NCBI RefSeq assembly: GCF_017876815.1
Contig: NZ_JAGIOS010000001.1
Location: 3,000,001-3,032,000, forward strand
DNA length: 32,000 nucleotides
Reading direction: 5' to 3'
DNA from: Sinorhizobium meliloti
GTDB taxonomy: Bacteria; Pseudomonadota; Alphaproteobacteria; Rhizobiales; Rhizobiaceae
Both the position numbers and the translations under genes were made by a program. The notes beneath the pieces are model-generated. The model saw only the letters and a program-made list of their open reading frames with translations, was not told where the DNA came from and searched no databases. This document shows, piece by piece, positions 6,369 to 30,380 of this stretch. Position 1 is the stretch's first letter; each line of letters opens with the position of its first letter.

Positions 6369-6383
6369 TGGCAATATATGCCA
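6369..6383. promoter_or_regulatory. TGGCA-N5-TGCCA dyad in the parD promoter (candidate autorepression operator)
   Basis: TGGCAATATATGCCA lies 22-36 nt upstream of the parD start. The AT-rich centre resembles a -10 element on the minus strand. Confidence 0.45.
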
Positions 6384-6519
6384 TTAAATCGAAGCTGTCG
6401 ACAGCGATCGGCCTGGATACGGTGAGATGCGCGGCCTGCCGGCAGCTCACCGTCGCGGAAGACGCAGAAGCAACGACACGGTCAGCGGCAAACCGGCCAG
6501 CCGAATATCCCCCGAACGA

Positions 6520-6537
6520 GGGCGCCCATGGGCGCCC
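6520..6537 (-). terminator. GC-rich palindromic hairpin just downstream of proV
   Basis: GGGCGCCCA|TGGGCGCCC is a perfect 18-nt palindrome, 11 nt after the proV stop. The U-tract on the minus strand is weak. Confidence 0.4.
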
Positions 6538-6548
6538 CTCAATGCGAA

Positions 6549-7595: not shown

Positions 7596-7814
7596 GGACA
7601 ACCTTTCCCCTTCTCTTGGCTTGGAGCTTTTACGCCGACTGCGTTTTCGCGGCGCTTGCCGCTCCTTGCATCAGAACTGTGACAGCGGAAGACGCGGACC
7701 GCTTTACTGTTTGCGACGCAGGCGCGGCTCGTGCGTCGCGCATCAGGCAGCCGCATCCTCGAAGGGGCACCGGAATCGATCACGTTCACGACTTCAGGCC
7801 GATCCGACCGACAA

Positions 7815-8813
7815 TCAGAGCGCCGCCTTCACCTTTTCGGCGACCTCCGGGCTTACCCACTGCGTCCATATCTCCTGGAAGTTCCCGAGGAAGTAGCGGG
7901 CGGCGCTCTCGTTCGTCCCCTGGTTCTGATCCATCCAGGCCAGAACCTTGTTTACCGTCGCGTTTTCCCATTGCCGCGCCTCGACGTAGTCCATGGCGCT
8001 GCCTGCTCTATCGGCAAAGGACTTGGTCACCACGGTATAGACGTCCGAGACCGGATAGGAGTTTACCTTTGGGGTCGGGCAATCCGGAGCGGCAGTGCAG
8101 GAGTCCCATTCCGCCTTGTCGTGATCCACACCGAAAGACAGCAAGGTCATCTCGTACTTGCCGAGCAAGGCGGTCGGAGCCCAATAGTAGCCGAGCCAGC
8201 CGGTCTTCTTCTCGAATGCTTCGGTGATCGACGCGTCAAGCCCGGCAGCAGAACCGGGATCGATCAGCTGGAAGCCGGCCTTTTCCGCATCGAGAGCCTT
8301 GTAGAGATTGGCGGTGGAGAACCGGCAGTTCCAGCTTGAAGGGCAATTATGGATCGCTCCCTTTGCGGGGTTCTCGTGAGAAGGGAAGAGTTCCGGGTGC
8401 TTCAACGCGTCCTGCACCGTTCGGATATCCGGGTGCGCGTCGGCGATGAACTTCGGAATCCACCAGCCTTCGACACCGCCTTCGCTCAAGATCTTGGCGC
8501 CCTCGACGAGGCGGCCCTCCTTGACTGCGGCATCGAAAGGCGTGCGTACGGAGTTGATCCAGAGTTCCGGCACCAGGTCGGGCTCTGCCTTCTCGTTCAT
8601 CGAGGTGAAGGTCAGCATCGTGTCGCCGGCGACGAGCTTCACGCTGCAGCCATAGCCGTTTTCCAGGATGAACCTGTCCACGTGAGCCGCGACGCCCGCC
8701 GACGCCCAGTCCATCTCGGCTATGCTGACGTCGCCGCATTCGGCAGCTCCGGAGGGGCCCGCCAGAGAGCATATGCCTGCCGTGAGGATGAGGGTAGCAA
8801 GGAGTTTTTTCAT
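7815..8813 (-). CDS. proX: glycine betaine-type ABC transporter substrate-binding protein (OpuAC/ProX family), secreted
   Basis: The track ORF was trimmed to ATG 8813 (MKKLLATLILTAGICSLAGPSGAAE signal peptide). Trp-rich OpuAC-like blocks are EMDWAS, GWWIPKF and GYYWAPT. Confidence 0.85.
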   Translation of the reverse strand: MKKLLATLILTAGICSLAGPSGAAECGDVSIAEMDWASAGVAAHVDRFILENGYGCSVKLVAGDTMLTFTSMNEKAEPDLVPELWINSVRTPFDAAVKEGRLVEGAKILSEGGVEGWWIPKFIADAHPDIRTVQDALKHPELFPSHENPAKGAIHNCPSSWNCRFSTANLYKALDAEKAGFQLIDPGSAAGLDASITEAFEKKTGWLGYYWAPTALLGKYEMTLLSFGVDHDKAEWDSCTAAPDCPTPKVNSYPVSDVYTVVTKSFADRAGSAMDYVEARQWENATVNKVLAWMDQNQGTNESAARYFLGNFQEIWTQWVSPEVAEKVKAAL

Positions 8814-9093
8814 GTCCGTCGACACCTTCACGTCACTGCGGCCACACATGGTGGATGGAGCGCCGCCTAACCGCTCCCGCGCTGAAGCTGCCAGCCGGCC
8901 CACTTCGTTGTCATTGCGGCAAGCCTAAGTGTTCGCGTTGAGAAATCAACCTTTTCATCCGGCGTCTGGCGCCGGCGGCGTATTCCGCCGTGACGCCCTC
9001 GCTGTACCGAGCACACGAACGGCGAAATCGACGAAATTCACTTTTGGTTAAGACCTCAATAACGATCCGGTAAGGTTGTGGGGATAATTGTCT

Positions 9094-9210
9094 GCCTGCG
9101 GCGGGCGACTGCCGCAGGTCCGGATCAGGTAGTGCGTGCCGGACCCGATATTCAGCAGAATAATCTGATCGCCGCACCCTTCCGTTCCAACGGTTGGGTG
9201 CGGCTTTTGC
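9094..9210 (+). ncRNA. candidate trans- or cis-acting small RNA (three hairpins ending in an intrinsic terminator)
   Basis: Hairpin 1 is 9094-9119 (CTGCGGC/GCCGCAG core). Hairpin 2 is 9117-9145 (GGTCCGG/CCGGACC). An AU-rich linker spans 9146-9170, and a terminator hairpin 9171-9204 is followed by TTTT. GATAAT at 9083-9088 could be a -10 box. No coding potential on this strand. Confidence 0.3.
9171..9208 (+). terminator. intrinsic terminator (plus-strand orientation; possibly bidirectional)
   Basis: GCCGCACCC-(16-nt loop with inner CCGTT/AACGG stem)-GGGTGCGGC is a perfect 9-bp GC-rich stem followed by TTTTGCATTT. Confidence 0.55.
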
Positions 9211-9276
9211 ATTTCCGGGGGAAGCGTGAAGAAGCTGCCCCGAAAAAGGGGGCGGTTTCGAACGCGACGTGGCGCT

Positions 9277-9420
9277 TTATCCGACGTTGGACGTTCGGAT
9301 GAGGCCGAGTGGGCCGACCGGCGCTTCCGCGACGACATTGCGGACGCGGGACTGGCCGTTCGGCGCCTTGGAGTTCCAGGCGATCTGAACGAAGTTGGGT
9401 TTGCCGAAGACGAACAGCAT
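9277..9420 (-). CDS. unannotated small ORF, 47 aa, unknown function
   Basis: MLFVFGKPNFVQIAWNSKAPNGQSRVRNVVAEAPVGPLGLIRTSNVG. By my hand count 40 of 47 codons end in G/C. An in-frame TAG lies 2 codons upstream of the ATG. CTATAT (an exact rhizobial -10 consensus) is at 9474-9479 on the minus strand, with ATTCAA 17 nt upstream. It falls below the length cut-off of the ORF track. Confidence 0.4.
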   Translation of the reverse strand: MLFVFGKPNFVQIAWNSKAPNGQSRVRNVVAEAPVGPLGLIRTSNVG

Positions 9421-9533
9421 GGCTTTCTACCTTGGGAGACCGGGCAATTTCCGGCGGGGTTTCGATGGCGCGGATATAGGCTCTTGCCGGGACGACTTGA
9501 ATGCCAGGCTCGGCACGGCATGTCGCAATTGAG

Positions 9534-9562
9534 CAAGCGTGCGAGAAATTTTCGCACGCTTG
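9534..9562. promoter_or_regulatory. 29-bp near-perfect palindrome between the small ORF and cobQ
   Basis: CAAGCGTGCGA-GAAATTT-TCGCACGCTTG has 11-bp perfect arms. It lies about 100 nt upstream of the cobQ start and about 35 nt upstream of the putative -35 of the small ORF. Confidence 0.4.
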
Positions 9563-9664
9563 AAGAAGGCCGGAAATGCACCGTGACCGCCGGTGACGCA
9601 ATCATGGCGGAATCGCGTCGGAACAGAGCTTTGCGGCGGGCGGTTTCGATGCTACGGGAAAGGC

Positions 9665-11119
9665 ATGACACGCAAGATCATGCTGCAGGGAACCGGCTCG
9701 GATGTCGGAAAATCGGTACTGGTAGCGGGCCTCTGCCGGCTCGCTTCCAATCATGGCCTCAGCGTAAAACCGTTCAAGCCCCAGAACATGTCGAACAATG
9801 CCGCCGTTGCCGACGACGGCGGCGAGATCGGCCGTGCGCAATGGCTCCAGGCGCTTGCCGCGCGCGTGCCGTCCTCCGTGCATATGAACCCGGTGCTTCT
9901 GAAGCCGCAATCGGATGTGGGCAGCCAGGTCGTCGTCCAGGGCAGGGTGGCGGGCCAGGCCAAGGGGAAGGAATACCAGGCTCTCAAACCGAGCCTCCTC
10001 GGCTCGGTCATGGAGAGTTTCGAACAGGTGTCCGCCGGCGCCGATCTCGTGATCGTCGAAGGCGCCGGCTCGCCGGCCGAAATCAACCTGCGCGCCGGCG
10101 ACATCGCCAATATGGGGTTTGCCACCCGCGCTGACGTGCCCGTGGTTCTCGTCGGCGATATCGACCGCGGTGGTGTGATCGCGTCCCTGGTCGGCACGCA
10201 TGCGATCCTGCCGGGGGACGACCGGCGCATGGTCACCGGCTACCTCATCAACAAATTCCGCGGCGATGTCACCCTCTTCGATGACGGCATCGCATCGGTT
10301 CGTCAGTTCACCGGCTGGCCTTGCTTCGGCGTCGTGCCCTGGCTGAAAAGTGCCGGGCGGCTGCCTGCCGAAGACTCCGTCGTCCTCGAGAGGCTGACGC
10401 GGGGCGGCGGCAAGGCGCTGAAGGTCGCAGTCCCCGTCCTGTCGCGGATCGCCAATTTCGACGATCTCGATCCCTTGGCCGCGGAGCCGGACGTGGACAT
10501 AGTCTTCGTTCGGCCGGGGACGCCGCTTCCCGACGATGCGGGCCTCATCGTCATACCCGGCTCGAAATCCACCATTGCCGATCTCGACGATTTCCGCAGG
10601 CAGGGCTGGGACCGGGATCTCGACCGGCATATGCGGCGCGGTGGCCGGGTCGTCGGTATCTGCGGCGGCTATCAGATGCTCGGAAGCCGGGTTGCCGACC
10701 CGCTCGGTATCGAGGGCGGCAAGCGCGAGATCGAGGGGCTGGGGCTGCTGTCCGTCGAGACGGAGATGGCTCCGGAAAAGACGGTTCGCAACAGCCGCGC
10801 CTGGTCGCGGGAATACGACGTCGCGCTCGAAGGCTACGAAATCCATCTCGGCAAGACGACGGGCGCCGATTGCAGCCGCGCGCCGGTCGAGATCGACGGC
10901 CGCCCGGATGGAGCGATGTCGGCGGACGGCCGCGTGATGGGCACCTATCTGCACGGTCTTTTCGGAAGCGACGCCTACCGGTCCGCGCTGCTCAAGAGCT
11001 TCGGTATCGAAGGCGGGGGAGGCAATTACCGCCGGTCGGTGGATGCGGCTCTCGACGAGATTGCCTTGGAACTCGAAACGGTACTCGATCGGGCGTGGCT
11101 CGGGACACTGCTCGGGTAG
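9665..11119 (+). CDS. cobQ: cobyric acid synthase
   Basis: The track ORF was trimmed to ATG 9665, preceded by GGGAAAGG. MTRKIMLQGTGSDVGKSVLVAGLCR is the CobQ/CbiP N-terminus. The C-terminal glutamine amidotransferase motifs are GICGGYQMLG and GTYLHGLF. Confidence 0.95.
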   Translation: MTRKIMLQGTGSDVGKSVLVAGLCRLASNHGLSVKPFKPQNMSNNAAVADDGGEIGRAQWLQALAARVPSSVHMNPVLLKPQSDVGSQVVVQGRVAGQAKGKEYQALKPSLLGSVMESFEQVSAGADLVIVEGAGSPAEINLRAGDIANMGFATRADVPVVLVGDIDRGGVIASLVGTHAILPGDDRRMVTGYLINKFRGDVTLFDDGIASVRQFTGWPCFGVVPWLKSAGRLPAEDSVVLERLTRGGGKALKVAVPVLSRIANFDDLDPLAAEPDVDIVFVRPGTPLPDDAGLIVIPGSKSTIADLDDFRRQGWDRDLDRHMRRGGRVVGICGGYQMLGSRVADPLGIEGGKREIEGLGLLSVETEMAPEKTVRNSRAWSREYDVALEGYEIHLGKTTGADCSRAPVEIDGRPDGAMSADGRVMGTYLHGLFGSDAYRSALLKSFGIEGGGGNYRRSVDAALDEIALELETVLDRAWLGTLLG

Positions 11120-17683: not shown

Positions 17684-20600
17684 ATGCATCTCCTCCTAGC
17701 TCAGAAAGGAACGATCGCCGACGGTAATGAGGCGATCGACCTCGGACAGAGCCCGGGCGACATATTGTTCCTGTCGGCGGCCGATACGGAACTTGCCTCG
17801 ATCGCGGCTGCCCATCGTCAGCGCGCGGGCGCAAGAAGCCTGCGGATCGCCAGCCTGATGAATCTCATGCACCCCATGTCGGTCGACACTTACGTCGAAC
17901 GCACGGCGAGGCATGCGAAGCTGATCGTCGTACGGCCGCTGGGTGGTGCGAGCTACTTCCGTTACGTCCTGGAGGCGCTCTACGCCGCGGCGGTTGCGAA
18001 TAAATTCCAGATCGCCGTGTTGCCGGGCGACGACAAGCCAGACCCGGGCCTCGACCCGTTTTCCACCGTATCGGTGGAAGACCGGCAGCGCCTTTGGGGG
18101 TATTGCACCGAAGGCGGCGCGGAGAATGCCGGCCTTTTCCTCGATTACGCGCAGGCATTGATCGACGGCGGCGACAAGCCGCAGCCGGCGCGGCCGCTGC
18201 TCAAGGCCGGCATATGGTGGCCGGGCAGGGGCGTGATCGGCGTCGAGGAATGGGTTCGCCTATCCGAACTGCGTCGGGCTGTACCCACCGCGCAGGCGGA
18301 CAGAGCGGAACACGAACCCACCGTCGCCGTCTGCTTCTACCGCGCGCTCGTCCAGAGCGGGGAGACGAAACCGGTAGAGGCGCTGATCGAGGCGCTTGCG
18401 GCCGAGGGCGTGCGGGCACTCCCCGTTTTCGTCTCCAGCCTCAAGGATCCGGTCTCGATCGGCACGCTCGAAGCGGTCTTCGCCGAAGCCCTTCCGGATG
18501 TCGTGATGAACGCCACGGGCTTTGCCGTTTCCGCACCGGGCGCGGACCGCCAGCCGACCGTGCTCGAATCGGGCGGCGCGCCGGTGCTGCAGGTCATCTT
18601 TTCCGGGTCGTCGCGGGAGGGCTGGGAAACTTCGGCTCAAGGGCTGATGGCCCGCGATCTCGGCATGAATGTCGCGTTGCCGGAGGTGGACGGGCGGGTT
18701 CTCTCCCGTGCCGTTTCCTTCAAGGCAGCCTCGGTTTACGACCCGCTGGTGGAGGCCAATATCGTCGGCCACGAGCCGCTTGCCGATCGCGCGCGCTTCG
18801 CGGCACGCCTCGCCGCCAATTGGACGAAGCTGCGCCGGACCCGGCCCGAGGGCCGCCGGGTCGCAATCGTCATGGCCAACTATCCGAACCGCGACGGGCG
18901 CCTCGGAAACGGCGTGGGTCTCGATACGCCTGCCGGCACGATTGAAGTGCTGAAGGCGATGACGGCAGAAGGCTACGCTGTCGGCAATGTTCCTGATGAC
19001 GGCGACGCGCTGATCGGCTTTCTGATGGCCGGGCCGACCAATGCGGCGAGCCGCGACCGGGAAATCCGCGAAACCATTTCCTTGAATCGCTACAAGGGTT
19101 TCTTCGACGCGCTTCCGAAAAAGATTCAAGAGGAAGTGACCGCGCGCTGGGGTGCGGCGGAGGCCGATCCCTTCTTCATCGACGGCGTATTCGCCCTGCC
19201 GCTCGCGCGCTTCGGCGATGTGCTCGTGGGCATCCAGCCGGCGCGTGGCTACAACATCGATCCCAAGGAAACCTATCACGCTCCGGACCTCGTGCCGCCG
19301 CACGGCTATCTGGCTTTCTATGCCTATCTGCGCGAGGTCTTCGGTGCCCATGCGATCGTCCATATGGGCAAGCACGGCAACCTCGAATGGCTTCCCGGAA
19401 AGGCGCTGGCGCTTTCCGAAGAATGCTACCCCGAGGTGATATTCGGCCCGATGCCGCATCTTTATCCCTTCATCGTCAACGATCCCGGCGAAGGCACACA
19501 GGCCAAGCGGCGGACGAGCGCCGTCATCATCGACCATCTGACGCCACCTTTGACGCGGGCGGAGTCCTACGGACCGCTCAAGGACCTGGAGGCGCTGGTC
19601 GACGAATATTACGAGGCCGCGGGCGGCGATCCGCGGCGGCTGAGGCTGCTCAGCCGGCAGATCCTCGATCTCGTCCGCGACATCGGCCTCGACCACGACG
19701 CCGGGATCGAGAAGGGCGACAGCGAGAACCGGGCGCTCGAAAAACTCGACGCCTATCTCTGCGACCTCAAGGAAATGCAGATCCGCGACGGCTTGCATGT
19801 TTTCGGCCTGGCGCCGGAAGGTCGGCTCTTGACCGATCTTACGGTCGCGCTCGCCCGTGTGCCGCGGGGTCTGGGTGAGGGCGGAGATCAGAGCCTGCAA
19901 CGGGCAATCGCGGTGGACTTGGGGTTGCACGCGGCTTCACGCTCGCAACGCCCGCAACCATTCGACCCGCTCGATTGCGTCATGTCCGATCCCTGGGCCG
20001 GCCTGAAGCCCGATCTTCTCGCCGCCCTCTCGGATGCGCCATGGCGCACCGCCGGCGACACGGTCGAGCGCATCGAACTGCTTGCGGCGAAGCTCGTTTC
20101 AGGCGAAATAGCCTGTCCGGTGGGATGGACCAACACCCGCGCCGTACTTGCCGTGATCGAGACGCGGCTGAAGCCTTCGATCCAAAGCTCCGGCGAGGCG
20201 GAAATAAAGGGTCTGCTGACGGGCCTCGACGGCCGGTTTGTCGCCCCCGGTCCCTCGGGTGCGCCGACGCGCGGCCGTCCGGACGTGCTGCCGACGGGGC
20301 GCAACTTCTATTCGGTGGACAGCCGCTCCGTGCCGACCCCGGCGGCCTACGAGCTCGGCAAGAAATCGGCGGAGCTGCTCATCCGCCGCTACCTGCAGGA
20401 CCATGGCGAATGGCCGTCCTCCTTCGGTCTCACGGCCTGGGGCACCTCCAACATGCGTACCGGCGGAGACGATATCGCCCAGGCTTTGGCACTGATCGGA
20501 GCAAAGCCCGTCTGGGACATGGCCTCGCGCCGCGTGACCGGGTACGAAATCATTCCGCTTGCCGTTCTCGGCCGTCCCCGTGTCGACGTCACCTTGCGTA

Positions 20601-21511
20601 TTTCCGGCTTCTTCCGCGACGCCTTTCCCGAGCAGATAGCACTCTTCGACAAGGCGGTCCGCGCGGTCGGCGCGCTCGACGAGGACGATGCCGACAATAT
20701 GATCGCCGCCCGCATGCGTGCCGAAACGCGGCGGTGGGAAGAGCGGGGCGCCGACGCGAAGGAGGCTCGACGCCGTGCCTCCTATCGCGTCTTCGGTTCG
20801 AAACCCGGCGCTTACGGAGCGGGCCTGCAGGCGCTTGTCGACGAGAAGGGCTGGGAAACGCGCGGCGATCTTGCCGAGGCTTACCTCAGCTGGGGCGGCT
20901 ACGCCTACGGTGCCGGCGAGGATGGAAAGGCGGAGCGCGGCCTTTTCGAGGAGCGTCTGCGCTCGATCGAAGCCGTGGTCCAGAACCAGGACAATCGCGA
21001 GCACGATCTGCTCGACAGCGACGACTACTACCAGTTCGAGGGGGGCATGAGCGCCGCGGCCGAGCATCTCGGCGGCCAGCGCCCGGCCATCTACCACAAC
21101 GACCATTCGCGCCCCGAAAAGCCGGTCATCCGCTCGCTCGAGGAGGAGATCGGCCGCGTGGTGCGTGCCCGCGTTGTCAATCCGAAGTGGATCGACGGCG
21201 TGATGCGCCACGGCTACAAGGGAGCCTTCGAAATCGCCGCGACGGTCGATTACATGTTCGCCTTCGCTGCGACCACCGGGGCGGTCCGCGATCATCACTT
21301 CGAGGCAGCCTATCAGGCCTATATCGCCGACGAGAAAGTCCTCGGGTTCCTGCGCGAAAAGAACCCGGCCGCGCTTTCGGAAATATCGGAGAGGCTGCTG
21401 GAGGCGATCGACCGCGGCCTATGGAACCCGCGCTCCAATTCGGCGCGATTCGAACTGAACAGCCTTTCCGGCCGCGCGGCTACCGACCGTCTGATGGCCG
21501 GAAATCAATAG
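17684..21511 (+). CDS. cobN: aerobic cobaltochelatase large subunit CobN
   Basis: 1275 aa, with the typical MHLLLAQ N-terminus. CobN/Mg-chelatase H-family blocks run throughout (GKHGNLEWLPGK, LPTGRNFYS, FGLTAWGTSNMRTGGDD). Confidence 0.97.
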   Translation: MHLLLAQKGTIADGNEAIDLGQSPGDILFLSAADTELASIAAAHRQRAGARSLRIASLMNLMHPMSVDTYVERTARHAKLIVVRPLGGASYFRYVLEALYAAAVANKFQIAVLPGDDKPDPGLDPFSTVSVEDRQRLWGYCTEGGAENAGLFLDYAQALIDGGDKPQPARPLLKAGIWWPGRGVIGVEEWVRLSELRRAVPTAQADRAEHEPTVAVCFYRALVQSGETKPVEALIEALAAEGVRALPVFVSSLKDPVSIGTLEAVFAEALPDVVMNATGFAVSAPGADRQPTVLESGGAPVLQVIFSGSSREGWETSAQGLMARDLGMNVALPEVDGRVLSRAVSFKAASVYDPLVEANIVGHEPLADRARFAARLAANWTKLRRTRPEGRRVAIVMANYPNRDGRLGNGVGLDTPAGTIEVLKAMTAEGYAVGNVPDDGDALIGFLMAGPTNAASRDREIRETISLNRYKGFFDALPKKIQEEVTARWGAAEADPFFIDGVFALPLARFGDVLVGIQPARGYNIDPKETYHAPDLVPPHGYLAFYAYLREVFGAHAIVHMGKHGNLEWLPGKALALSEECYPEVIFGPMPHLYPFIVNDPGEGTQAKRRTSAVIIDHLTPPLTRAESYGPLKDLEALVDEYYEAAGGDPRRLRLLSRQILDLVRDIGLDHDAGIEKGDSENRALEKLDAYLCDLKEMQIRDGLHVFGLAPEGRLLTDLTVALARVPRGLGEGGDQSLQRAIAVDLGLHAASRSQRPQPFDPLDCVMSDPWAGLKPDLLAALSDAPWRTAGDTVERIELLAAKLVSGEIACPVGWTNTRAVLAVIETRLKPSIQSSGEAEIKGLLTGLDGRFVAPGPSGAPTRGRPDVLPTGRNFYSVDSRSVPTPAAYELGKKSAELLIRRYLQDHGEWPSSFGLTAWGTSNMRTGGDDIAQALALIGAKPVWDMASRRVTGYEIIPLAVLGRPRVDVTLRISGFFRDAFPEQIALFDKAVRAVGALDEDDADNMIAARMRAETRRWEERGADAKEARRRASYRVFGSKPGAYGAGLQALVDEKGWETRGDLAEAYLSWGGYAYGAGEDGKAERGLFEERLRSIEAVVQNQDNREHDLLDSDDYYQFEGGMSAAAEHLGGQRPAIYHNDHSRPEKPVIRSLEEEIGRVVRARVVNPKWIDGVMRHGYKGAFEIAATVDYMFAFAATTGAVRDHHFEAAYQAYIADEKVLGFLREKNPAALSEISERLLEAIDRGLWNPRSNSARFELNSLSGRAATDRLMAGNQ

Positions 21512-21521
21512 GGAGGACATC

Positions 21522-22166
21522 ATGAACGACGAGACCGCGAATACCGGCGAACCGATCGCCGAGAAGGATGAAGCGCGTCACGCCATGAAGATGGCGAAGA
21601 AGAAGACCGCCCGTGACAAGATCATGGCCACCAAGACGGACGAAAAAGGCTTGATCATCGTCCACACCGGCAAGGGCAAGGGCAAGTCGACTGCCGGATT
21701 CGGCATGATCTTTCGCCACATCGCCCACGGAATGCCCTGCGCCGTCGTTCAGTTCATCAAGGGCGCCATGCACACGGGCGAACGCGACCTGATCGAGAAG
21801 CATTTCGGCGAGATCTGCCAGTTCCACACGCTCGGCGAAGGCTTCACCTGGGAAACGCAGGATCGCGCGCGCGACATTGCCATGGCGGCGAAGGCCTGGG
21901 AAAAGGCCAAGGAGCTCATCCGCGACGAACGCAACTCCATGGTGCTCCTCGACGAGATCAACATCGCGCTGCGCTACGACTATATCGACGTCGCCGAGGT
22001 CGTAAGCTTCCTCAAGGAAGAGAAGCCGCACATGACGCATGTGGTCCTGACCGGCCGAAATGCCAAGGAAGACCTGATCGAGATCGCCGATCTGGTGACG
22101 GAGATGGAGCTGGTGAAGCATCCCTTCCGCTCGGGAATCAAGGGCCAGAAGGGCGTCGAATTCTGA
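21522..22166 (+). CDS. cobO: cob(I)yrinic acid a,c-diamide adenosyltransferase
   Basis: Motifs are the GKGKGKSTAG P-loop, FIKG, LDEINIALRY and VLTGRNA. GGGAGGA precedes the ATG, 10 nt after the cobN stop. Confidence 0.93.
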   Translation: MNDETANTGEPIAEKDEARHAMKMAKKKTARDKIMATKTDEKGLIIVHTGKGKGKSTAGFGMIFRHIAHGMPCAVVQFIKGAMHTGERDLIEKHFGEICQFHTLGEGFTWETQDRARDIAMAAKAWEKAKELIRDERNSMVLLDEINIALRYDYIDVAEVVSFLKEEKPHMTHVVLTGRNAKEDLIEIADLVTEMELVKHPFRSGIKGQKGVEF

Positions 22167-22288
22167 TGACGCAGAGCTGGCAGCTATTGGCGCTGCTCTC
22201 CGCAGCGCTGACTGCCGTCTTCGCCAAAATCGTCGCCGCTATGTCCATTCGTATTGACAAGTCGTATCCTAGCGTTAGGCTTGGCTGA
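22166..22288 (+). pseudogene. stump of a small EamA/DMT-type membrane protein gene, translationally coupled to cobO
   Basis: ATG 22166 overlaps the cobO stop (TGATG). MTQSWQLLALLSAALTAVFAKI matches the N-terminal TM1 pattern of small EamA-family proteins. From about 22233 the reading (VAAMSIRIDKSYPSVRLG, then stop) loses the family pattern and GC content drops. Confidence 0.5.
22254..22281 (+). promoter_or_regulatory. possible sigma70-type promoter for the amiC operon
   Basis: TTGACA (22254-22259), a 16-nt spacer, then TAGGCT (22276-22281), within the low-GC junction segment. Confidence 0.3.
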
Positions 22289-22307
22289 AATTATCTGTCG
22301 GCATCTG

Positions 22308-22347
22308 GGCCTCGAAGAGAAACTTTGTTTCTCTGCGGGGCCTTTTT
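22308..22347 (+). terminator. strong intrinsic terminator 15 nt upstream of the amiC start codon
   Basis: GGCCTCGAAGAGAAAC-TTT-GTTTCTCTGCGGGGCC forms a 16-position stem (14 Watson-Crick pairs, 1 GU, 1 mismatch) followed by TTTTT (22343-22347). Confidence 0.75.
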
Positions 22348-22362
22348 GCATTTGAGGGGCGA

Positions 22363-23529
22363 ATGACAGGCAACGTTACCTACCCGGTGGGAGTATTGTT
22401 CTCGCGGAGCGGCAGCTATGCGCAGCCGGCGGGCCAGGGCTTTGGCGGCGCGATGGCAGCGATCGAGCATGTCAATGCATCCCGGCGTTTCCCGTTCAGG
22501 CTCGAGGCCCATCATTTCGATCCCGCGGGCGAGGCGGATCGCTATGCACCGTTTTGCAGGCAACTGATCCGCGAGCACGGTGTGCGCCATGTGGTGGGCT
22601 GCACCACCTCCTGGAGCCGCAAGGAAGTGATTCCCGTGGTCGAGAAGCTCGACGCGCTGCTCTGGTATCCATGCGTCTATGAAGGTTTCGAGGTTTCCGA
22701 AAACCTTATCTACGTTGCCGCCTGTGCCAACCAGCACCTGGTGCCGCTTCTCGACTATATCGCGCCGCGCTTCGGCAGCAGGGCGATGCTTGTCGGCTCC
22801 AACTATATCTGGGGCTGGGAGACCAACCGGATCGCACGCGACATTCTCCATCGCTCGGGCGGCGAGATCCTGGGCGAGCGTTTCGTGTCGATGGGAGACA
22901 CGGATATCGCCCATCTGATCGACGAGGTGCGCGAGAAGAAACCGGATTTTATCCTGAACAACCTGATCGGACCGTCGTCCTACGCTTTTCTGCGCGCACT
23001 TCAGGCTCTCGCTGAAGCAGATGATCGCTTCCATCCGGATAGATGCCCGGTCATCAGCTGCAATCTGTACGAGGGCGAGATCGCCGGGCTCGGACACGCC
23101 GCGGCGGGACATTTCACGGTCAGCTGCTATTTCCGCACGATCCAGTCGCCCGAAAACGACTCCTTCCTGAAGACACTTGCGGCGCTGGATCCGGGTGCCG
23201 TGGTCGATGCCTTCTATGTGCAGGCATTCAGTGCCGTGGTGATGATCGCCGAGGCGATCGCGCGCAGCGGCAGCGACGATGCGGATCTTGTACGCGCCGC
23301 CCTGTGCGGGCAGGCAGTCGACACGCCGCTCGGGGCCATCAGCGTCGATCGATGGACGAACCACGTGGAATTGCCTGCCCATATCGGCCGCGCGGGTGCG
23401 GATGGCAGTTTCGAGATCGTCAAGCGCTCGTATGAAGCCATCGCGCCGGATCCGTTCCTGACATCCACGCCGCTTGTCCGCCCGTTGGGGCGGGACGAGG
23501 GGCGGCCCGAACTGAAGGTGGTGAAATGA
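22363..23529 (+). CDS. amiC: AmiC-like cytoplasmic amide sensor (periplasmic-binding-protein fold, no signal peptide), negative regulator of AmiR
   Basis: It aligns by eye along its length with P. aeruginosa AmiC. Shared blocks are VGVLFS, DRYAPFCRQLI..GVRHVVGC, VIPVVEKLDALLWYPCVYEGFE, APDPF. GAGGGG RBS at 22354-22359. Confidence 0.88.
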   Translation: MTGNVTYPVGVLFSRSGSYAQPAGQGFGGAMAAIEHVNASRRFPFRLEAHHFDPAGEADRYAPFCRQLIREHGVRHVVGCTTSWSRKEVIPVVEKLDALLWYPCVYEGFEVSENLIYVAACANQHLVPLLDYIAPRFGSRAMLVGSNYIWGWETNRIARDILHRSGGEILGERFVSMGDTDIAHLIDEVREKKPDFILNNLIGPSSYAFLRALQALAEADDRFHPDRCPVISCNLYEGEIAGLGHAAAGHFTVSCYFRTIQSPENDSFLKTLAALDPGAVVDAFYVQAFSAVVMIAEAIARSGSDDADLVRAALCGQAVDTPLGAISVDRWTNHVELPAHIGRAGADGSFEIVKRSYEAIAPDPFLTSTPLVRPLGRDEGRPELKVVK

Positions 23530-24140
23530 GTTCCGTTCATAACACCCCGAATTTCGATGGCTGGCGGGCGCTCATTCTGCACCGGCCGCATCAGAACGTC
23601 GACGCTCTCTTTGCCCAATGCGCCCGCATAGGCATTGCGGCGGAACAGGCCTGGCCGGATTTTCCCAGGGATCGATCTGCAGAGGAGTTCAACGTCCTCC
23701 TGATCGACGCAGATATGGGTCACGACGAGCAATTTCCCTGGCGTCAGGGGGAAGCCCCCTTGCCGATGATCGCACTGATCGGCTCCGAGGCACCCGGCCG
23801 CATCGCCTGGACTATCGCGCAAGGGGCCGACGCGCAGCTCCTGAAGCCCATCGGCAGCGCCGGGCTGTACAGTGCTCTGATGGTCGCAAGCCACAGTTTT
23901 GTCCGCCGCCGTGCGCTCGATCGTGACGTCGCCGCATTGAAGGATCGCCTCGCGCGACGCCAGGAACTTGCGGAGGCGACGGCACTGCTGATGCTCCGGA
24001 AGAACTGCGGGGCCAGCGAAGCCTACCAGCACCTGCGCCTGACCGCGATGTCGCGCAGCTGCAGCATCGAGGACGTCGCTGCGGCCATCGTCCAGGAATT
24101 CGAGAACCACGGATTGAAGAATGCCGACCATGGTCGCTGA
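23526..24140 (+). CDS. amiR: AmiR-type ANTAR antiterminator (pseudo-receiver plus ANTAR domain)
   Basis: The start overlaps the amiC stop (ATGA). The order is an N-terminal receiver-like fold without an obvious phospho-Asp context, a coiled linker, then the ANTAR segment ATALLMLRKNCGASEAYQHLRLTAMSRSCSIEDVAAAIV. Confidence 0.88.
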   Translation: MSSVHNTPNFDGWRALILHRPHQNVDALFAQCARIGIAAEQAWPDFPRDRSAEEFNVLLIDADMGHDEQFPWRQGEAPLPMIALIGSEAPGRIAWTIAQGADAQLLKPIGSAGLYSALMVASHSFVRRRALDRDVAALKDRLARRQELAEATALLMLRKNCGASEAYQHLRLTAMSRSCSIEDVAAAIVQEFENHGLKNADHGR

Positions 24141-25017
24141 AACGGCGCGCAGCAAAGAGAACAGGACACCGGGCGTGTGGACGCGCCTCCTGCACAGGCC
24201 GCTTGCGCTCATCGGTCTTGCGGTTATCATCGTGGTGGTGGGCGCAGCAGCGCTTGCGCCTTGGGTCGTGCCCTATGACCCGCACGAGCAGTTCTTCGAG
24301 GGTCTGACCATCGAAGGCGCGCCGCTGCCGCCCAACAGCCAGTTCTGGCTGGGTACCGACCTTGTCGGACGCGACCTCCTTAGCCGCCTGATCTACGGCG
24401 CGCGCACCTCGCTCGTCATCGGCGTGGTCGCCAATGGCATTGCCGTCGTCATCGGCTCGCTCGTCGGCATTGCAGCCGGCTATTTCCGGGGCTGGGTGGA
24501 CACCGTGCTGATGCGCTTCACCGATCTGATGATGGCCTTTCCGGCACTTCTCCTTGCCATCGTTCTGGCTGCGATCTTCACGCCCAGCCTGTGGATCGTG
24601 GCGATGGTCATCGCCATGGTGAACTGGGTGCAGATCGCCCGCGTCGTCTATACCGAAACCCGCTCGATCGCCGAGCGCGATTTCGTGACTGCCGAGCGGG
24701 CCATGGGCGCCGGCGCCGGACGCATTCTCTTCCGTCACATCCTGCCGCATCTTCTGTCCACGATCATCGTCTGGGCGACGCTCGGCATTGCGACGACTGT
24801 ACTACTGGAGGCGACGCTTTCATTCCTCGGTATCGGCGTGCAGCCGCCCATCCCGTCGTGGGGCAACATCATTTTCGAAAACCAGACCTATTTCACGTCG
24901 GCACCCTGGCTGGTGTTCATACCGGGTGCGGCGATCCTGGCGCTCGCGCTCGCCTTCAACCTGGTCGGCGATGCGCTGCGCGATGTTCTCGATCCGACGC
25001 AGCAGGGGAGGCATTGA
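24121..25017 (+). CDS. ABC transporter permease, DppC/OppC-like
   Basis: Six hydrophobic spans and the EAA-type loop AERAMGAGAGRILFRHILPH. The start (24121 or 24130) overlaps the amiR 3' end. Confidence 0.9.
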   Translation: MPTMVAETARSKENRTPGVWTRLLHRPLALIGLAVIIVVVGAAALAPWVVPYDPHEQFFEGLTIEGAPLPPNSQFWLGTDLVGRDLLSRLIYGARTSLVIGVVANGIAVVIGSLVGIAAGYFRGWVDTVLMRFTDLMMAFPALLLAIVLAAIFTPSLWIVAMVIAMVNWVQIARVVYTETRSIAERDFVTAERAMGAGAGRILFRHILPHLLSTIIVWATLGIATTVLLEATLSFLGIGVQPPIPSWGNIIFENQTYFTSAPWLVFIPGAAILALALAFNLVGDALRDVLDPTQQGRH

Positions 25018-25937
25018 TGGCAGCCTATATCGCGCGGCGACTGCTTCAGACGGTCGTCATCCTGCTTGGCATCAGCTTCGTCACCTTCGTTCTGCTCTAT
25101 CTGATACCGGCCGATCCGGCCAGACAGATCGCCGGCCGCAGCGCAACGGCTCAGACCGTGGAGAACATCCGCGAACAGCTCGGGCTCAACCTGCCCTTCT
25201 ACGAGCAGTATCTGCGTTACGTCACGGGCCTGGTGCAGGGCGACTTCGGCCGCTCCTATCTGCAGAAGACGGAAGTCGCCACTTTGATCGCATCGCGCCT
25301 TCCGGCAAGCCTCGTGCTGATGGCCGGAGCCATCACTTGTGAACTGATCTTCGGGCTCACCATGGGCATCGTCGCGGCGCTCCGGCGCGGCTCACGCACC
25401 GACGATACGCTGATGATCGCGTCTTTCGTCGGGGTGTCGGCGCCGCAATTCGTGATCGGCATCCTGCTGCTTTACGTCTTCGCCGTGAAGCTCGGCTGGT
25501 TCCCGATTGGCGGCTACGGCACCTTCGCCCATCTGGTCCTGCCCTCCGTTACGCTCGGCTTCCTGGGCGCCGGTTGGTATTCGCGCATGATGCGTTCCTC
25601 GCTGATCGAAGTGATGCGCCAGGATTTCATCCGCACGGCGCGCGCAACCGGTGCCGGTCGCGCCAAGGTCCTGTTCCGGCACGCAATGCCCAACGCGATA
25701 CTGCCCGTTATCGCGATGATCGGCATCGACATCGGTCTGTTCATGTCCGGCATCGTGGTGGTGGAAAGCGTCTTCGGCTGGCCCGGCATCGGCCAGCTGG
25801 CCTGGCAGGCGATCCAGCGGGTGGACATCCCGATCATCATGGGCGTCACGCTCGTCTCTGCGTTTGCAATCGTGCTCGGCAACCTGCTCGCCGACCTCAT
25901 CACACCGCTTATCGACCCGCGCATCAAGCTGCGCTGA
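25017..25937 (+). CDS. ABC transporter permease, DppB/OppB-like
   Basis: ATG 25017 overlaps the preceding stop (TGATG), with AGGGGAGG upstream. MAAYIARRLLQTVVILLGISFVTF is the typical N-terminus and the EAA loop is TARATGAGRAKVLFRHAMPNA. Confidence 0.9.
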   Translation: MAAYIARRLLQTVVILLGISFVTFVLLYLIPADPARQIAGRSATAQTVENIREQLGLNLPFYEQYLRYVTGLVQGDFGRSYLQKTEVATLIASRLPASLVLMAGAITCELIFGLTMGIVAALRRGSRTDDTLMIASFVGVSAPQFVIGILLLYVFAVKLGWFPIGGYGTFAHLVLPSVTLGFLGAGWYSRMMRSSLIEVMRQDFIRTARATGAGRAKVLFRHAMPNAILPVIAMIGIDIGLFMSGIVVVESVFGWPGIGQLAWQAIQRVDIPIIMGVTLVSAFAIVLGNLLADLITPLIDPRIKLR

Positions 25938-25978: not shown

Positions 25979-27595
25979 ATGAGGAACTTGCTACTGGCCG
26001 GCGTCTGCACCGCCGCACTCATGGGAAATCCCGCGCTTGCCGACGACATCAAGCAGGGTGGCGAAATGACCGTCACCTACAAGGACGACGTTTCGACCCT
26101 CGATCCGGCGATCGGCTACGACTGGCAGAACTGGTCGATGATCAAGTCGCTGTTCGACGGTCTGATGGATTATGTCCCGGGCACGACCGAGCTGCGTCCC
26201 GACCTTGCCGAATCCTACGAAATCTCGGAGGACGGCAAAATCTTCACGTTCAAGCTGCGCAAGGGCGTCAAGTTTCACAACGGCCGCGAGCTGACTGCCC
26301 AAGACGTGAAATATTCGATCGAGCGCGTGGTGAACCCGGCGACCCAGAGCCCGGGTGCCGGGTTCTTTGCAACGATCAAAGGGGTCGAAGAGGCCTCGGC
26401 CGGCAAGGGTGGCGAGCTATCCGGCATCACGGTGCAGGATCCGCACACGATCAGGTTCGAACTGACCCGCCCGGACGCCACTTTCCTCCACGTCATGGCG
26501 CTCAACTTTGCCCATGTCGTGCCGAAGGAGGAGGTCGAGAAACACGGCGCCGATTTCGGTAAGAATCCGGTCGGTTCCGGTGCCTTCAAGCTTGCCGAAT
26601 GGACACTTGGGCAGCGTCTGGTGTTCGAACGCTTCACCGACTATTGGAACGAAGGGCTTCCGAAGCTGGACCGCATCACCTTCGAGGTTGGCCAGGAGCC
26701 GGTCGTTGCGCTTCTTCGCCTGCAGAACGGCGAAATCGACGTGCCCGGAGACGGCATTCCGCCGGCGAAGTTCGTCGAGGTGACGAACGACCCCAACTTC
26801 AAGGATCTGATCATCCGGGGCGGCCAGCTGCACACCGGCTATGTGACGATGAACGTCAAGATGGCTCCCTTCGACAAGGTCGAGGTGCGCAAGGCTGTGA
26901 ACATGGCCATCAACAAGGATCGTATCCTGCGTATCATCAACGGTCGCGCGGTCGCTGCCAACCAGCCGCTGCCGCCCTCGATGCCCGGCTATGCAAAGGA
27001 CTACGCAGGCTATGCCTACGATCCCGAAGGCGCCAAGAAGCTGCTCGAGCAGGCCGGCCTCGGCGACGGGTTCTCGACCGAACTCTATGTCATGAACACC
27101 GACCCGCAGCCGCGCATCGCCCAGGCGATCCAGCAGGATCTGAAGGCGATCGGCATCACGGCATCGATCAAGTCGCTCGCACAGGCCAATGTCATCGCGG
27201 CCGGCGGCGAGGAAAACCAGGCGCCGATGATCTGGTCGGGCGGCATGGCGTGGATTGCCGATTTCCCCGATCCGTCGAACTTCTACGGCCCCATTCTGGG
27301 TTGCGGCGGTGCCGTGCCGGGAGGCTGGAACTGGTCCTGGTACTGCAATGAAGAGCTCGACAAGAAGGCAGCCGAAGCCGACGCCATCGCCGACCCGGCA
27401 AAGGCCGCGGAGCGCGAGGCCCTGTGGCGCGACATCTATCTGAAGATCATGGAGGACGCGCCCTGGGCGCCGATCTTCAACGAGGAGCGCTTCACCATCC
27501 GCTCGGAGCGTATCGGCGGCGACGACAAGCTGTTTGTCGATCCGGTCCACATCCCCGTCCACTACGATCAGGTATATGCAAAAGATGTGCAGTAA
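25979..27595 (+). CDS. ABC transporter substrate-binding protein, family 5 (peptide/opine/nickel type), secreted
   Basis: The track ORF was trimmed to ATG 25979 (AAGAAAGGA upstream). The signal peptide is MRNLLLAGVCTAALMGNPALADD. SBP_bac_5-type blocks are LDPA, KFHNGRELTAQDVKYS and GSGAFKL. Confidence 0.9.
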   Translation: MRNLLLAGVCTAALMGNPALADDIKQGGEMTVTYKDDVSTLDPAIGYDWQNWSMIKSLFDGLMDYVPGTTELRPDLAESYEISEDGKIFTFKLRKGVKFHNGRELTAQDVKYSIERVVNPATQSPGAGFFATIKGVEEASAGKGGELSGITVQDPHTIRFELTRPDATFLHVMALNFAHVVPKEEVEKHGADFGKNPVGSGAFKLAEWTLGQRLVFERFTDYWNEGLPKLDRITFEVGQEPVVALLRLQNGEIDVPGDGIPPAKFVEVTNDPNFKDLIIRGGQLHTGYVTMNVKMAPFDKVEVRKAVNMAINKDRILRIINGRAVAANQPLPPSMPGYAKDYAGYAYDPEGAKKLLEQAGLGDGFSTELYVMNTDPQPRIAQAIQQDLKAIGITASIKSLAQANVIAAGGEENQAPMIWSGGMAWIADFPDPSNFYGPILGCGGAVPGGWNWSWYCNEELDKKAAEADAIADPAKAAEREALWRDIYLKIMEDAPWAPIFNEERFTIRSERIGGDDKLFVDPVHIPVHYDQVYAKDVQ

Positions 27596-28529
27596 CTGCG
27601 ACTACACCATCCACGGACGCCATCACCACTACGGCTGGGATCATTCGATCCCGCCGGTGGAAACCGTGGCGCCCGGATCGCGGCTCGAGTTCAATTGCCT
27701 GGACTCCGGTTCCGGTCATTTCACCGCCGACAGCACGGTTGCCGATGTCTCGACGGTCGATTTCACGAAGGTCAATCCGGTCACCGGTCCCATCTATGTC
27801 GATGGGGCCAAGCCGGGTGACGCCCTGAAGGTGACCATCGAGCACTTCAAGCCGAGCGGCTTTGGCTGGACGGCCAATATTCCGGGCTTCGGGCTCCTCG
27901 CCGACCAGTTCGCGGAGCCGGCGCTGACACTCTGGAAATATGATCCGGCTACGCTCGCTCCCGCAGCCTTTGGCGAGTTCGGCCGGGTTCCTCTGAAGCC
28001 CTTCGCCGGCACGATCGGGCTCGCGCCGGCAGAGCCGGGGCTGCATTCCGTGGTTCCGCCGCGGCGGGTAGGAGGCAATCTCGACATTCGCGACCTGGCG
28101 GCGGGCACAACCCTCTATCTGCCCGTCGAGGTGGAGGGCGCCCTGTTCTCCATCGGCGACACGCATGCGGCGCAGGGCGATGGCGAAGTCTGCGGCACGG
28201 CCATCGAAAGCGCGATGGACGTGGTCCTGAAGCTGGAACTGGTGAAGGACGCCAATCTCAGGATGCCGCGCTTTACCACGCCGGGCCCCGTCACACGGCA
28301 TCTCGATGCCGAGGGCTATGAGGTCACGACCGGTATTGGAAGCGATCTGATGGAAGGTGCGCGGGCGGCCGTGTCCGGCATGATCGACCTTCTCTGTGCG
28401 ACACGCGGCATGAAGCCGGAAGACGCCTACATGCTCTGCTCCGTCTGCGGCGACCTTCGCATCAGCGAGATCGTCGACCAGCCGAACTGGGTCGTGTCCT
28501 TCTATTTCCCGCGCATCGTCTTTGCGTGA
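27576..28529 (+). CDS. acetamidase/formamidase (FmdA_AmdA) family amidase, short (about 315 aa) form
   Basis: Family blocks are [29 protein letters not shown] and [18 protein letters not shown]. The start is ATG 27576 or 27585, overlapping the binding-protein stop. Confidence 0.85.
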
Positions 28530-28536: not shown

Positions 28537-28564
28537 GTCCTGCCCCGCCTCGGCGGGACAGGAC
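28537..28564 (+). other. stable intercistronic hairpin between the amidase and ATPase genes
   Basis: GTCCTGCCCCGC-CTCG-GCGGGACAGGAC forms a 12-position stem with one C/A mismatch and no U-tract. Confidence 0.5.
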
Positions 28565-28598: not shown

Positions 28599-30380
28599 AT
28601 GACTTCCTCTCTGCTTTCCGTGAAGGATCTGACCGTCCAGGTGGCTACGCCGACCGGGCCGAAGGTCGTGGTGGAGCGTCTGTCCTTCGATCTTCTTCCC
28701 GGCAGGACGCTTTGTCTTGCAGGCGAGAGCGGATCGGGTAAATCGATGACCGCGCTTTCGCTGATGCAGTTGCTGCCGAAGCCGATGGCACGAATTGCGG
28801 GCGGCTCGGCCACTCTCGATGGCGAGGACATATTGGCGCTTCCGGAAGCACGCATGCGGCGGATTCGCGGGCGCAAGATCGGGATGATCTTCCAGGAGCC
28901 GATGACCTCGCTCAATCCGGTGATGACGGTCGGAAATCAGCTGATCGGGGCGATCACCGCCCACGGAAACACCAGTGGCCGGCGCGCCGCGCGGGCGCGG
29001 GCCGCCGAACTCCTGGACCAGGTTCAGATTCCGGAGCCGGAGCGGCGGCTCGGCCAATATCCGCACGAGCTCTCCGGCGGCTTGCGTCAGCGAATCGTCA
29101 TCGCGATGGCGCTCGCGCAAAACCCGAAAATCCTGATCGCCGACGAGCCGACGACGGCGCTCGACGTAACGGTTCAGGCGCAGATCCTGGCCCTTATCCG
29201 CAAGCTGCAGGCCGATCACGGGATTTCGGTGATCATGATCACCCATGACATGGGCGTGGTCGCGGAAATGGCCGACGAGGTGCTGGTGATGAAGCATGGC
29301 CGTACCGTGGAGCACGCAACCAGCAGGGATCTTTTCGCGCATCCGCAGGATGCGTACACGAAGGAGCTCCTATCCGCCGTGCCGCGCCTTGGCGAAATGG
29401 CGGGAACGGAGACGCCGAAGCGTGCAGCGGGGAAGGCGGTCGAGGCAGGATCTGAGCCAGGCGCCGAACAGCCGATGCTCCAGGTCGAGAACCTCACGGT
29501 TCGTTTCGACATAAAGGGCGGCATCCTTCAGCGCCCGGTCAGGCGACTTCACGCGGTGGAGGGCATCTCTTTGTCCGTGCGCAGGGGTGAGACGCTGTCT
29601 CTCGTCGGAGAGTCCGGTTGCGGCAAGTCGACGACCGGCAAGGCGCTCTTGAACCTTGTCCCGTGGACGGGAGACATACGCGTCGACGGACGCTCCACGC
29701 GCGGCTTGCGAGGGAGCACGATGCGGCCCATCCTGCGTGACGTCCAGATGATCTTCCAGGACCCTTACGCATCGCTGGATCCGCGTATGCGGGTCGGCGA
29801 TCTGGTGGCCGAGCCACTTGTGATCCACGGCCTTGCAAGCGGAAGCGAGCTGCGTGACCGGGTGGAGTATCTTTTCAAGCGGGTCGGATTGTCGCCCGAG
29901 CAGATGAAGCGTTACCCGCATGAGTTTTCGGGCGGTCAGCGGCAGCGCATCTGTATCGCGCGCGCCCTGTCTCTCTCACCGAAGCTCATCGTCGCAGATG
30001 AGTCCGTCGCGGCACTCGACGTGTCGATCCAGGCACAGGTGCTCGATCTCCTGCAGGACATCCAGGACGAGACCGGCGTCTCCTACCTGTTTATTTCGCA
30101 CGACATGGCGGTCGTCGAGCAGATCAGCCACCGGGTAGCGGTCATGTACATGGGCCGCTTCGTCGAAATGGGCACGCGGCGGCAGATCTTCGAGAGTCCG
30201 CAGCATCCCTATACGAAGAAACTGATGGCAGCCGTTCCCGTGGCCGATCCGGGCCGAGTACGCCGGGATTTCGTGCCGAAAGCGGAAGACCTGCCGAGTC
30301 CTGTGCGCGCCCTGGATTATGCGCCATCCTTCCCGCCGCCATCGGATCTGGGCGGCGGACATCTCGTCTGGAACGGCTAA
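28599..30380 (+). CDS. fused double ATP-binding protein of a Dpp/Opp-type ABC transporter (DppD-DppF fusion)
   Basis: 593 aa with two complete cassettes. Walker A motifs are GESGSGKS and GESGCGKS. Signatures are LSGGLRQR and FSGGQRQR. Walker B motifs are [12 protein letters not shown] and [12 protein letters not shown]. Confidence 0.92.

Follow-up and report, generated by a model that had tools for sequence, protein, structure and literature searches.

A conserved transcription attenuator before the amiC-amiR operon of Sinorhizobium meliloti, a probable target of AmiR

Introduction

In the amidase operon of Pseudomonas aeruginosa, the sensor AmiC and the regulator AmiR, which has an ANTAR RNA-binding domain, act by antitermination at a rho-independent terminator in the amiE leader, and both are also transcribed from the operon that they regulate. 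The canonical RNA target of ANTAR proteins is a pair of hairpins (P1 and P2) of at least 3 base pairs (bp), with hexaloops that carry A at position 1 (A1) and G at position 4 (G4), the second of which overlaps a terminator (PMC3369931). In the seed alignment of that study, P2 is AGAGC-AAAUGG-GCUCU for P. aeruginosa amiE and GGC-AAAGGA-GCC for Enterococcus faecalis eutP. The ANTAR dimer touches one hexaloop at a time, and the minimal site has been redefined as a single hexaloop (Walshe et al. 2022, PMC8934654). For the MeAmi operon of Mesorhizobium sp. AP09, which encodes an ATP-binding cassette (ABC) importer of L-amino-acid amides, canonical dual-hexaloop targets "could not be identified" (bioRxiv 10.1101/2024.02.22.581678). 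The subject here is the leader that precedes amiC and amiR in Sinorhizobium meliloti, at 22254-22362 on the plus strand of a stretch of 32,000 nucleotides (nt), the whole of which is referred to as the window.

Judged by sequence comparison, this segment is probably the promoter and an AmiR-read transcription attenuator of a seven-gene operon, which would feed back on amiC and amiR themselves. That is in substance what had been proposed from the letters of the window (the sequence-only reading), in which a leader terminator was described as a probable, autoregulatory AmiR target; the promoter hexamers, two small hairpins, the terminator and the gap before amiC all lie where that reading had placed them. 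Antitermination in a leader by AmiC and AmiR is known, and what appears to be new is an AmiR-type attenuator with a single, non-canonical hexaloop that is conserved over a large operon family.

The amiC leader

The terminator hairpin (22307-22343, plus strand) has an 8-bp outer stem (22307-22314 with 22336-22343), a 1x1 mismatch, an 8-bp inner stem (22316-22323 with 22327-22334) and a UUU loop (22324-22326). Its fold, with 16 bp in the stem, has a predicted energy of -29.2 kcal/mol (z = -5.9), and 0 of 200 shuffled sequences were equally stable. It is followed by a U-tract of five residues (22343-22347), the first of which is able to pair with G22307, and this combination of a stable GC-rich stem-loop and U5 is that of a predicted intrinsic (rho-independent) terminator. 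A simple terminator scan did not list the 22307-22347 terminator, presumably because of the 1x1 internal mismatch in the stem. Exactly 15 nt (22348-22362) separate the T-tract from the amiC ATG at 22363, which places the terminator in the leader, where every amiC transcript must cross it, as had been claimed. The Shine-Dalgarno sequence, GAGGGG (22354-22359), begins 6 nt beyond the U-tract and lies outside the terminator stem.

A sigma-70-type promoter is recognisable upstream, with a -35 hexamer, TTGACA, at 22254-22259 and a -10 hexamer, TAGGCT, at 22276-22281, separated by a 16-nt spacer. From the geometry of this promoter the 5' end of the leader RNA would be near A22288, at the start of a short AU-rich stretch (22288-22299) that folds as unpaired. 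TAGGCT scores under the threshold of a promoter consensus scan. There is no AUG within 22288-22362 that could begin a leader peptide. A sigma-54 promoter over the T-tract or the GGCA motif was considered and rejected, there being no fitting GG-N10-GC spacing when judged by eye.

Between the predicted start and the terminator lies a small hairpin, GGC-AUCUGG-GCC (22300-22311), with a stem formed by 22300-22302 and 22309-22311 and a hexaloop at 22303-22308. This P2-like mini-hairpin, which had been the second of the two hairpins proposed, is the putative AmiR binding site and antiterminator. The 5' base of the terminator, 22307-22311, contains the 3' arm and the last two loop bases of the mini-hairpin, and the two structures are mutually exclusive. 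In the sequence of the window alone, neither this nor the other proposed 3-bp hairpin differs from chance (z = -0.8 and -0.4). Only comparison across genomes can tell the two apart.

Conservation of the leader

Orthologous leaders were obtained from 80 genomic loci found by alignment of AmiC homologues (AmiC identity 44-97%), which span the Rhizobiaceae, Phyllobacteriaceae, Brucellaceae, Devosiaceae, Stappiaceae, Inquilinus, Thalassospira, Azospirillum and others; these loci are related by descent, and counts of leaders are not counts of independent events. The same layout is seen in nearly every locus: a TTGAC promoter, a short leader, a 3-bp hairpin, a strong hairpin, a tail rich in T, a ribosome-binding site rich in G (in most leaders the U-tract is followed by a G-rich run) and the start codon. 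TTGAC(A/T/G) is present at the equivalent place in all 80 leaders, 44-86 nt upstream of the conserved hairpin in each. TAGGCT is the commonest -10 candidate (14 loci), the others being mostly TAnnnT at a spacing of 16-18 nt. The leader terminators range from -16 to -48 kcal/mol. Since this same leader is found in 80 loci despite differing upstream genes, the terminator belongs to the amiC operon, which has its own promoter.

The one conserved element upstream of the terminator is the mini-hairpin with its 3' arm over the terminator base: a GGC-[A+5 nt]-GCC hairpin is present in 80 of 81 leaders, overlapping the terminator base by 1-5 nt (5 nt in the window). Among the 75 unique sequences the stem is GGC/GCC except in two lineages, in both of which the changes compensate each other (three Thalassospira loci with GCC/GGC, and locus L033 of the orthologous set with AGC/GCU), and in Thalassospira the 3' arm of the terminator is altered together with the stem of the mini-hairpin. 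The loop has A at position 1 in 73 of the 75 (A22303 in the window), A or U at position 2 in 70, and G at position 5 in 50; position 4 is mostly U (48), otherwise C (17), G (6) or A (4), and is U22306 in the window. The 3' strand of the terminator pairs and co-varies with loop positions 5-6 and with the 3' arm of the mini-hairpin, as would be expected of structures that exclude each other. In pseudo-alignment A4, which is anchored and has an artificial ATATAT linker, the terminator base helix is 92.7% paired over 72 leaders, a percentage inflated by making the alignment from per-sequence folds; there are 78 double-change cells, against 18 in shuffles.

The pattern that anchors these counts presupposes the hairpin, and a test without that assumption was therefore run, in which terminators were called in 1.4 Mb from T-runs and folding alone and a strict mini-hairpin was defined by a C-G closing pair and A at loop position 1. 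Such a hairpin overlaps the base of 51 of 60 amiC-leader terminators, and of only 2 of the 557 other terminator-like hairpins in the same DNA. Likewise a covariance model of the leader (R1), searched against 1.43 Mb of orthologous loci and the window, gave one match per locus, always in the amiC leader; that in the window is at 22288-22352 (60.5 bits, E = 5.5e-9), and R1 found no second copy of the module inside the operon. The short pattern GGCANNNNNGCCYC is found twice in the window where 1.16 are expected, the second, at 30869, being outside the operon. No Rfam family reached its gathering score in the 32 kb, and a permissive scan of the leader gave one meaningless miRNA match (E = 6.9).

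When metagenome contigs were searched with the motif pattern alone, 37 matches were obtained. In 21 of these an amiC homologue (42-89% identity) begins 12-47 nt downstream, 2 run off the contig, and 13 have no association with amiC or amiR, for which a rough estimate of chance matches, from a collection whose size is not known, is some tens. In the remaining case, L101, the GGC-AUCUGG-GCC/terminator module (5545-5604, plus strand) precedes a different operon (5640-10474, plus strand), with an amidase-signature amidase, a Peripla_BP_6 protein and two Liv-type permeases (BPD_transp_2), while the divergent amiC-amiR pair alongside (3174-4925, minus strand) itself lacks a module of this kind. The strongest hint that the module tracks the regulator, and not the amiC gene as such, comes from L101.

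A model for attenuation

When the nascent leader is folded step by step, the mini-hairpin (-2.7 kcal/mol) is part of the most stable structure up to 22338, and after GGGCC(U) has been transcribed the full terminator prevails (-29.2 kcal/mol). Locking the mini-hairpin raises the energy of the best structure to -15.1 kcal/mol and leaves a residual stem that falls 4 nt short of the U-tract. An intrinsic terminator stem that does not abut its U-tract should fail to terminate.

These folds suggest the following course of events. RNA synthesis would start near 22288 from TTGACA-N16-TAGGCT and, after about 12 unstructured nt, the hexaloop hairpin at 22300-22311 would form. Some 30 nt further on the 3' arm of the terminator would be made, its last five bases would displace the mini-hairpin, and the full stem would meet the U-tract, so that transcription ends 15 nt before amiC. 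AmiC would sequester AmiR until released by an amide ligand; the analogy of the MeAmi binding protein makes an L-amino-acid amide the probable ligand. The freed ANTAR domain would then bind and hold the mini-hairpin, leaving the residual stem 4 nt short of the U-tract and allowing read-through into the whole operon. With amiC and amiR at the head of the genes that the attenuator controls, leaky termination would set their basal level and induction would raise it.

The proteins that such a mechanism needs are encoded directly behind the terminator, as had been proposed. The amiC product is a cytoplasmic sensor whose fold is that of a periplasmic binding protein (22363-23529, plus strand; Pfam Peripla_BP_5 PF13433, 8e-107; best PDB match P. 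aeruginosa AmiC 1PEA, 5e-54), presumed to be the amide-binding negative regulator; its domain begins at residue 8, too near the N-terminus for a signal peptide to precede it. AmiR (23526-24140, plus strand) has an AmiR_N pseudo-receiver and an ANTAR domain (PF21332, 1.1e-11; PF03861, 8.7e-12; best PDB match AmiR 1QO0 chain D, 8.6e-11). The window therefore has the components of an AmiC/AmiR system: an AmiC-type cytoplasmic binding protein, an AmiR_N and ANTAR protein, a rho-independent leader terminator and an amidase in the operon, the last belonging to another enzyme family than AmiE.

Comparison with described ANTAR targets

The window shares with the P. aeruginosa amiE leader a homologous AmiC sensor and AmiR regulator, a rho-independent leader terminator, and regulators that are also transcribed from the regulated operon. 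The loop of amiE P2, AAAUGG, and that of the window, AUCUGG, both have a GC closing pair, A1, U4, G5 and G6, and both lie at the base of the terminator. The sequence-only reading had counted U at position 4 as a mismatch to the ANTAR consensus; the U is there, and it matters less because amiE P2 also has U4 and G5. The two systems differ in that amiE is first in P. aeruginosa whereas the regulators are first here, a difference that had already been recorded, and in cargo, which is AmiE/AmiB/AmiS in P. aeruginosa and an Opp-type ABC importer with an FmdA/AmdA-family amidase in the window. A P1 hairpin is lacking in the window's clade, the 5-bp stem of amiE P2 has a counterpart of 3 bp, and, unlike in the P. 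aeruginosa amidase operon, the U-tract is only 15 nt from the start codon. The targets of EutV in the E. faecalis eut genes and of NasR at nasF (Ramesh et al. 2012, PMC3369931) also have P2 over the terminator base and A1, and the stem of eutP P2 is identical to that of the window (3 bp, GGC/GCC).

The canonical EutV/NasR target differs from the leader of the window, which has one hexaloop, with a residue other than G at position 4. A covariance model of the canonical ANTAR target (R2), built from the nine published seed sequences (PMC3369931), was applied, as the sequence-only reading had suggested. Several results weigh against AmiR as the reader of this leader. R2 gave no plus-strand match in 22150-22420, even with the filters off, and none at any amiC leader in the 81 loci (1.43 Mb). 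Tandem hairpins are lacking in the transcribed leader, where the roughly 12 nt between the predicted start and the conserved hairpin are unstructured and too few to hold a P1, and in vivo induction by EutV requires both hairpins (PMC3369931). G4 is replaced by U22306 and is present in just 6 of 75 leaders; A1 (A22303), on the other hand, is present, and the hairpin does overlap the 5' base of an intrinsic terminator. The conservation of GCC and of loop positions 5-6 is forced by the terminator stem, so that only the GGC 5' arm and A1 are independently kept, and the pair counts are partly circular, through the anchoring pattern and the per-sequence folds, and come from phylogenetically related loci. 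Finally, the promoter spacer was not found among the transcription start sites listed for S. meliloti 1021 in the accessible part of the tables of Schlueter 2013.

The sequence-only reading had offered CCU-AGCGUU-AGG (22268-22279), here called hairpin 1, as P1, and had stated that this hairpin and the promoter are mutually exclusive. They are, and the evidence favours the promoter, with TTGAC and a -10-like hexamer in all 80 leaders. Hairpin 1 falls between the two promoter hexamers and precedes the predicted start at about 22288; among the orthologous leaders it was found only in Sinorhizobium, so that of the two proposed hairpins only the second is conserved. In the 50 nt that precede the conserved hairpin, 9 of 78 leaders have a hairpin with an A1/G4 hexaloop, where shuffling predicts 10.8. 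Hairpin 1 was rejected as P1 on these grounds. Nor does the apical loop of the terminator serve as a second hexaloop, as its length and sequence differ between loci. The promoter spacers of Sinorhizobium sp. K101 (L002, 8158-8169) and S. medicae (L004) contain a perfect 12-bp palindrome, CCTAACGTTAGG, which is imperfect at the equivalent 22268-22279 of the window; this could be a DNA operator overlapping the -10 hexamer, not an RNA hairpin.

Given that R2 finds nothing in the leaders, the window's clade appears to use a single hexaloop. About 40 leaders, that of the window included, have just 16-26 unstructured nt from the -10 hexamer to the conserved hairpin (class I), and these fit the single-hexaloop definition of the minimal ANTAR site. 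Walshe et al. 2022 (PMC8934654), in whose account one hexaloop is likewise the unit bound by the ANTAR dimer, expected single sites where a transcribing polymerase sets no time limit, whereas the loop of the window lies in a co-transcriptional attenuator. In distant lineages (L035-L082, for example L045, L060 and L042) the interval from the promoter to the conserved hairpin holds one or two additional GC-rich hairpins; the closest is only 2-5 nt from the conserved one, and the loops are of 3-9 nt, only some of them beginning with A. CCGGC-AAAUGC-GCCGG in Azospirillum (L050, 8866-8944) is among the few that look like a true second hexaloop. Across the leader family this looks like a graded loss of P1.

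The MeAmi operon of Mesorhizobium sp. AP09 resembles that of the window in having its regulators at the 5' end and in its cytoplasmic Peripla_BP_5 protein, ANTAR protein, ABC permeases, substrate-binding protein, amidase and ATPase (bioRxiv 10.1101/2024.02.22.581678); gene content and order are those of a MeAmi-type operon, a likeness judged from the published description. The absence of R2 matches at the amiC leaders agrees with the published failure to find canonical dual hexaloops for this operon type; the present leader module is a candidate for the cis element that was not found there.

Alternative explanations

The attenuator might be real and yet be read by something other than AmiR, such as another RNA-binding protein, a small RNA or elongation factors, the GGC-A motif being part of the initial transcribed sequence or serving RNA stability. 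The motif does fail the canonical ANTAR model, and the G4 that stacks on a tyrosine in the EutV-RNA structure (PMC8934654) is absent from the loop of the window. This is nonetheless unlikely, as the motif has the closing pair, A1 and U4/G5 of the P2 of amiE, the known AmiR target, stands at the exact position of an ANTAR P2 over the terminator base, and co-occurs with amiC and amiR, also in L101 with its divergently transcribed regulators and its different gated operon. It is considerably less probable still that the stem-loop acts post-transcriptionally, as a 5' stabiliser or translational element. The 6 nt between U-tract and Shine-Dalgarno sequence bring it close to the ribosome-binding site, and mycobacterial ANTAR RNAs act on translation (bioRxiv 10.1101/660928), but the Shine-Dalgarno sequence is outside the stem, and a conserved GC-rich stem abutting a U-tract is the combination that defines an intrinsic terminator.

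Equally improbable is a canonical target in transcripts that read through from cobO, with hairpin 1 as P1 and the conserved hairpin as P2. Both hairpins are present in the window, and Sinorhizobium sp. K101 and S. medicae retain A1 and G4 (loop AACGUU), which says little because Sinorhizobium sequences are 89-98% identical here. Hairpin 1, however, sits on the promoter spacer and -10 hexamer, is missing outside Sinorhizobium, is of a kind that arises at the chance rate in the leaders, and together with the 20-nt linker and its partner scores nothing with the canonical model; the dual-hairpin reading was accordingly abandoned. Least probable of all, if by little, is that this is a simple terminator of the cobN-cobO unit (and the EamA-family gene discussed below), with amiC expressed by unregulated read-through. 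The terminator is on the same strand, about 180 nt downstream of cobO, and in relatives about 100 nt after an intact EamA-family gene, but the same module stands before amiC in 80 loci with differing upstream genes, with a conserved promoter between the upstream gene and the terminator. In Sinorhizobium the amiC leader terminator probably also stops read-through from the cob genes, as a side effect. AmiR-dependent attenuation is thus retained as the preferred reading.

The operon and its surroundings

The window is 98.4% identical to the S. meliloti chromosome CP090106.1, and the AmiC and AmiR that it encodes have the same sequences as Q92P38 and Q92P39. Behind amiC and amiR, all on the plus strand, are two Opp/Dpp-type ABC permease genes (24121-25017 and 25017-25937; NCBIfam and Pfam BPD_transp_1), their order kept in all loci, and the gene of a substrate-binding protein (25979-27595), annotated "ABC transporter substrate-binding protein" in the 98.4%-identical record and kept in position in all loci. 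This last position matches that of the SBP_bac_5 L-amino-acid-amide binder in the MeAmi-type operon, a family match made by position alone. An amidase gene of the acetamidase/formamidase family (27576-28529; Pfam FmdA_AmdA, 6e-60) and, as the last gene of the operon, a fused double ABC ATPase gene (28599-30380; NCBIfam and Pfam ABC_tran x2) complete the seven tightly packed genes; in the annotated relative a convergent gene follows. The order amiC-amiR-permease-permease-substrate-binding protein-amidase-ATPase is kept, as far as the contigs extend, in 78 of the 80 loci, while upstream neighbours vary. The exceptions are a locus with an extra ATPase-like match outside the usual position and L074, which stops just past amiR.

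The overlaps of amiC with amiR (4 nt, 23526-23529) and of amiR with the first permease gene (20 nt, 24121-24140) leave no space in which an internal promoter or attenuator could separate the transporter genes from the regulators. In S. meliloti Ak57 (L001, 9023-9633), the amiR match is in two overlapping pieces and no coding sequence is listed between amiC and the first permease, which suggests that amiR is a frameshifted pseudogene there, although the gene table used omits pseudogenes.

It had also been stated that the operon contains no other terminator-like structure. This holds to the extent that R1 matches the module once only. A strong GC-rich hairpin is nevertheless present at 28537-28564, in the 69-nt gap between the amidase and ATPase genes (-24.5 kcal/mol, z = -3.4), although it lacks a U-tract. 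The stoichiometry of the ATPase may be set by this hairpin, through mRNA processing, stabilisation or partial termination. In many orthologous loci this gap also has a hairpin, of different sequence, and in L016, L028, L036, L038, L043, L060, L063, L064, L067 and L077 strongly structured insertions (down to -616 kcal/mol) widen it to 130-1150 nt. Several of these have common motifs such as CCCCCTCTGCCCTGCCGGGCATCTCCCCC...GGGGGGAGATC, which suggests that they are REP/RIME-like repeat elements.

Upstream of the leader are cobN (17684-21511) and cobO (21522-22166), both on the plus strand. A 40-codon open reading frame that overlaps the cobO stop codon (22166-22288) is the remnant of an EamA-family transporter gene (141 amino acids), which is intact in Sinorhizobium sp. 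K101 (L002, 7667-8092), Ensifer sp. USDA 6670 and S. medicae. The S. meliloti terminator is so near to cobO because a 380-bp deletion and a 9-bp gap removed most of this gene. The deletion junction, 22227/22228, is within a short repeated ATCG(G/T)CG..CGC stretch, which suggests that the deletion was microhomology-mediated. The amiC promoter is 26 nt downstream of the junction and is unaffected.

Implications

On these comparisons a minimal ANTAR riboregulator can be proposed, tentatively and at somewhat less than even chances. A single 12-nt hairpin with an A1/U4/G5 hexaloop, placed some 12 nt behind the 5' end of the transcript, would let AmiR defeat a terminator of -29 kcal/mol co-transcriptionally; P1 would be dispensable, having been lost in the clade of Rhizobiaceae, Phyllobacteriaceae, Brucellaceae and Devosiaceae, and the module would be the cis target of hundreds of MeAmi-type operons. 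If this is true, it supplies the cis-regulatory element that the only study of the operon family reported not to have found (bioRxiv 10.1101/2024.02.22.581678), and it would explain why searches with canonical dual-hexaloop models miss AmiR-type targets in alphaproteobacteria. The promoter and leader RNA of about 60 nt would make a small, portable, amide-inducible switch. The locus would also be a compact natural test case for the question raised by the EutV-RNA structure, whether one hexaloop is enough for co-transcriptional ANTAR antitermination.

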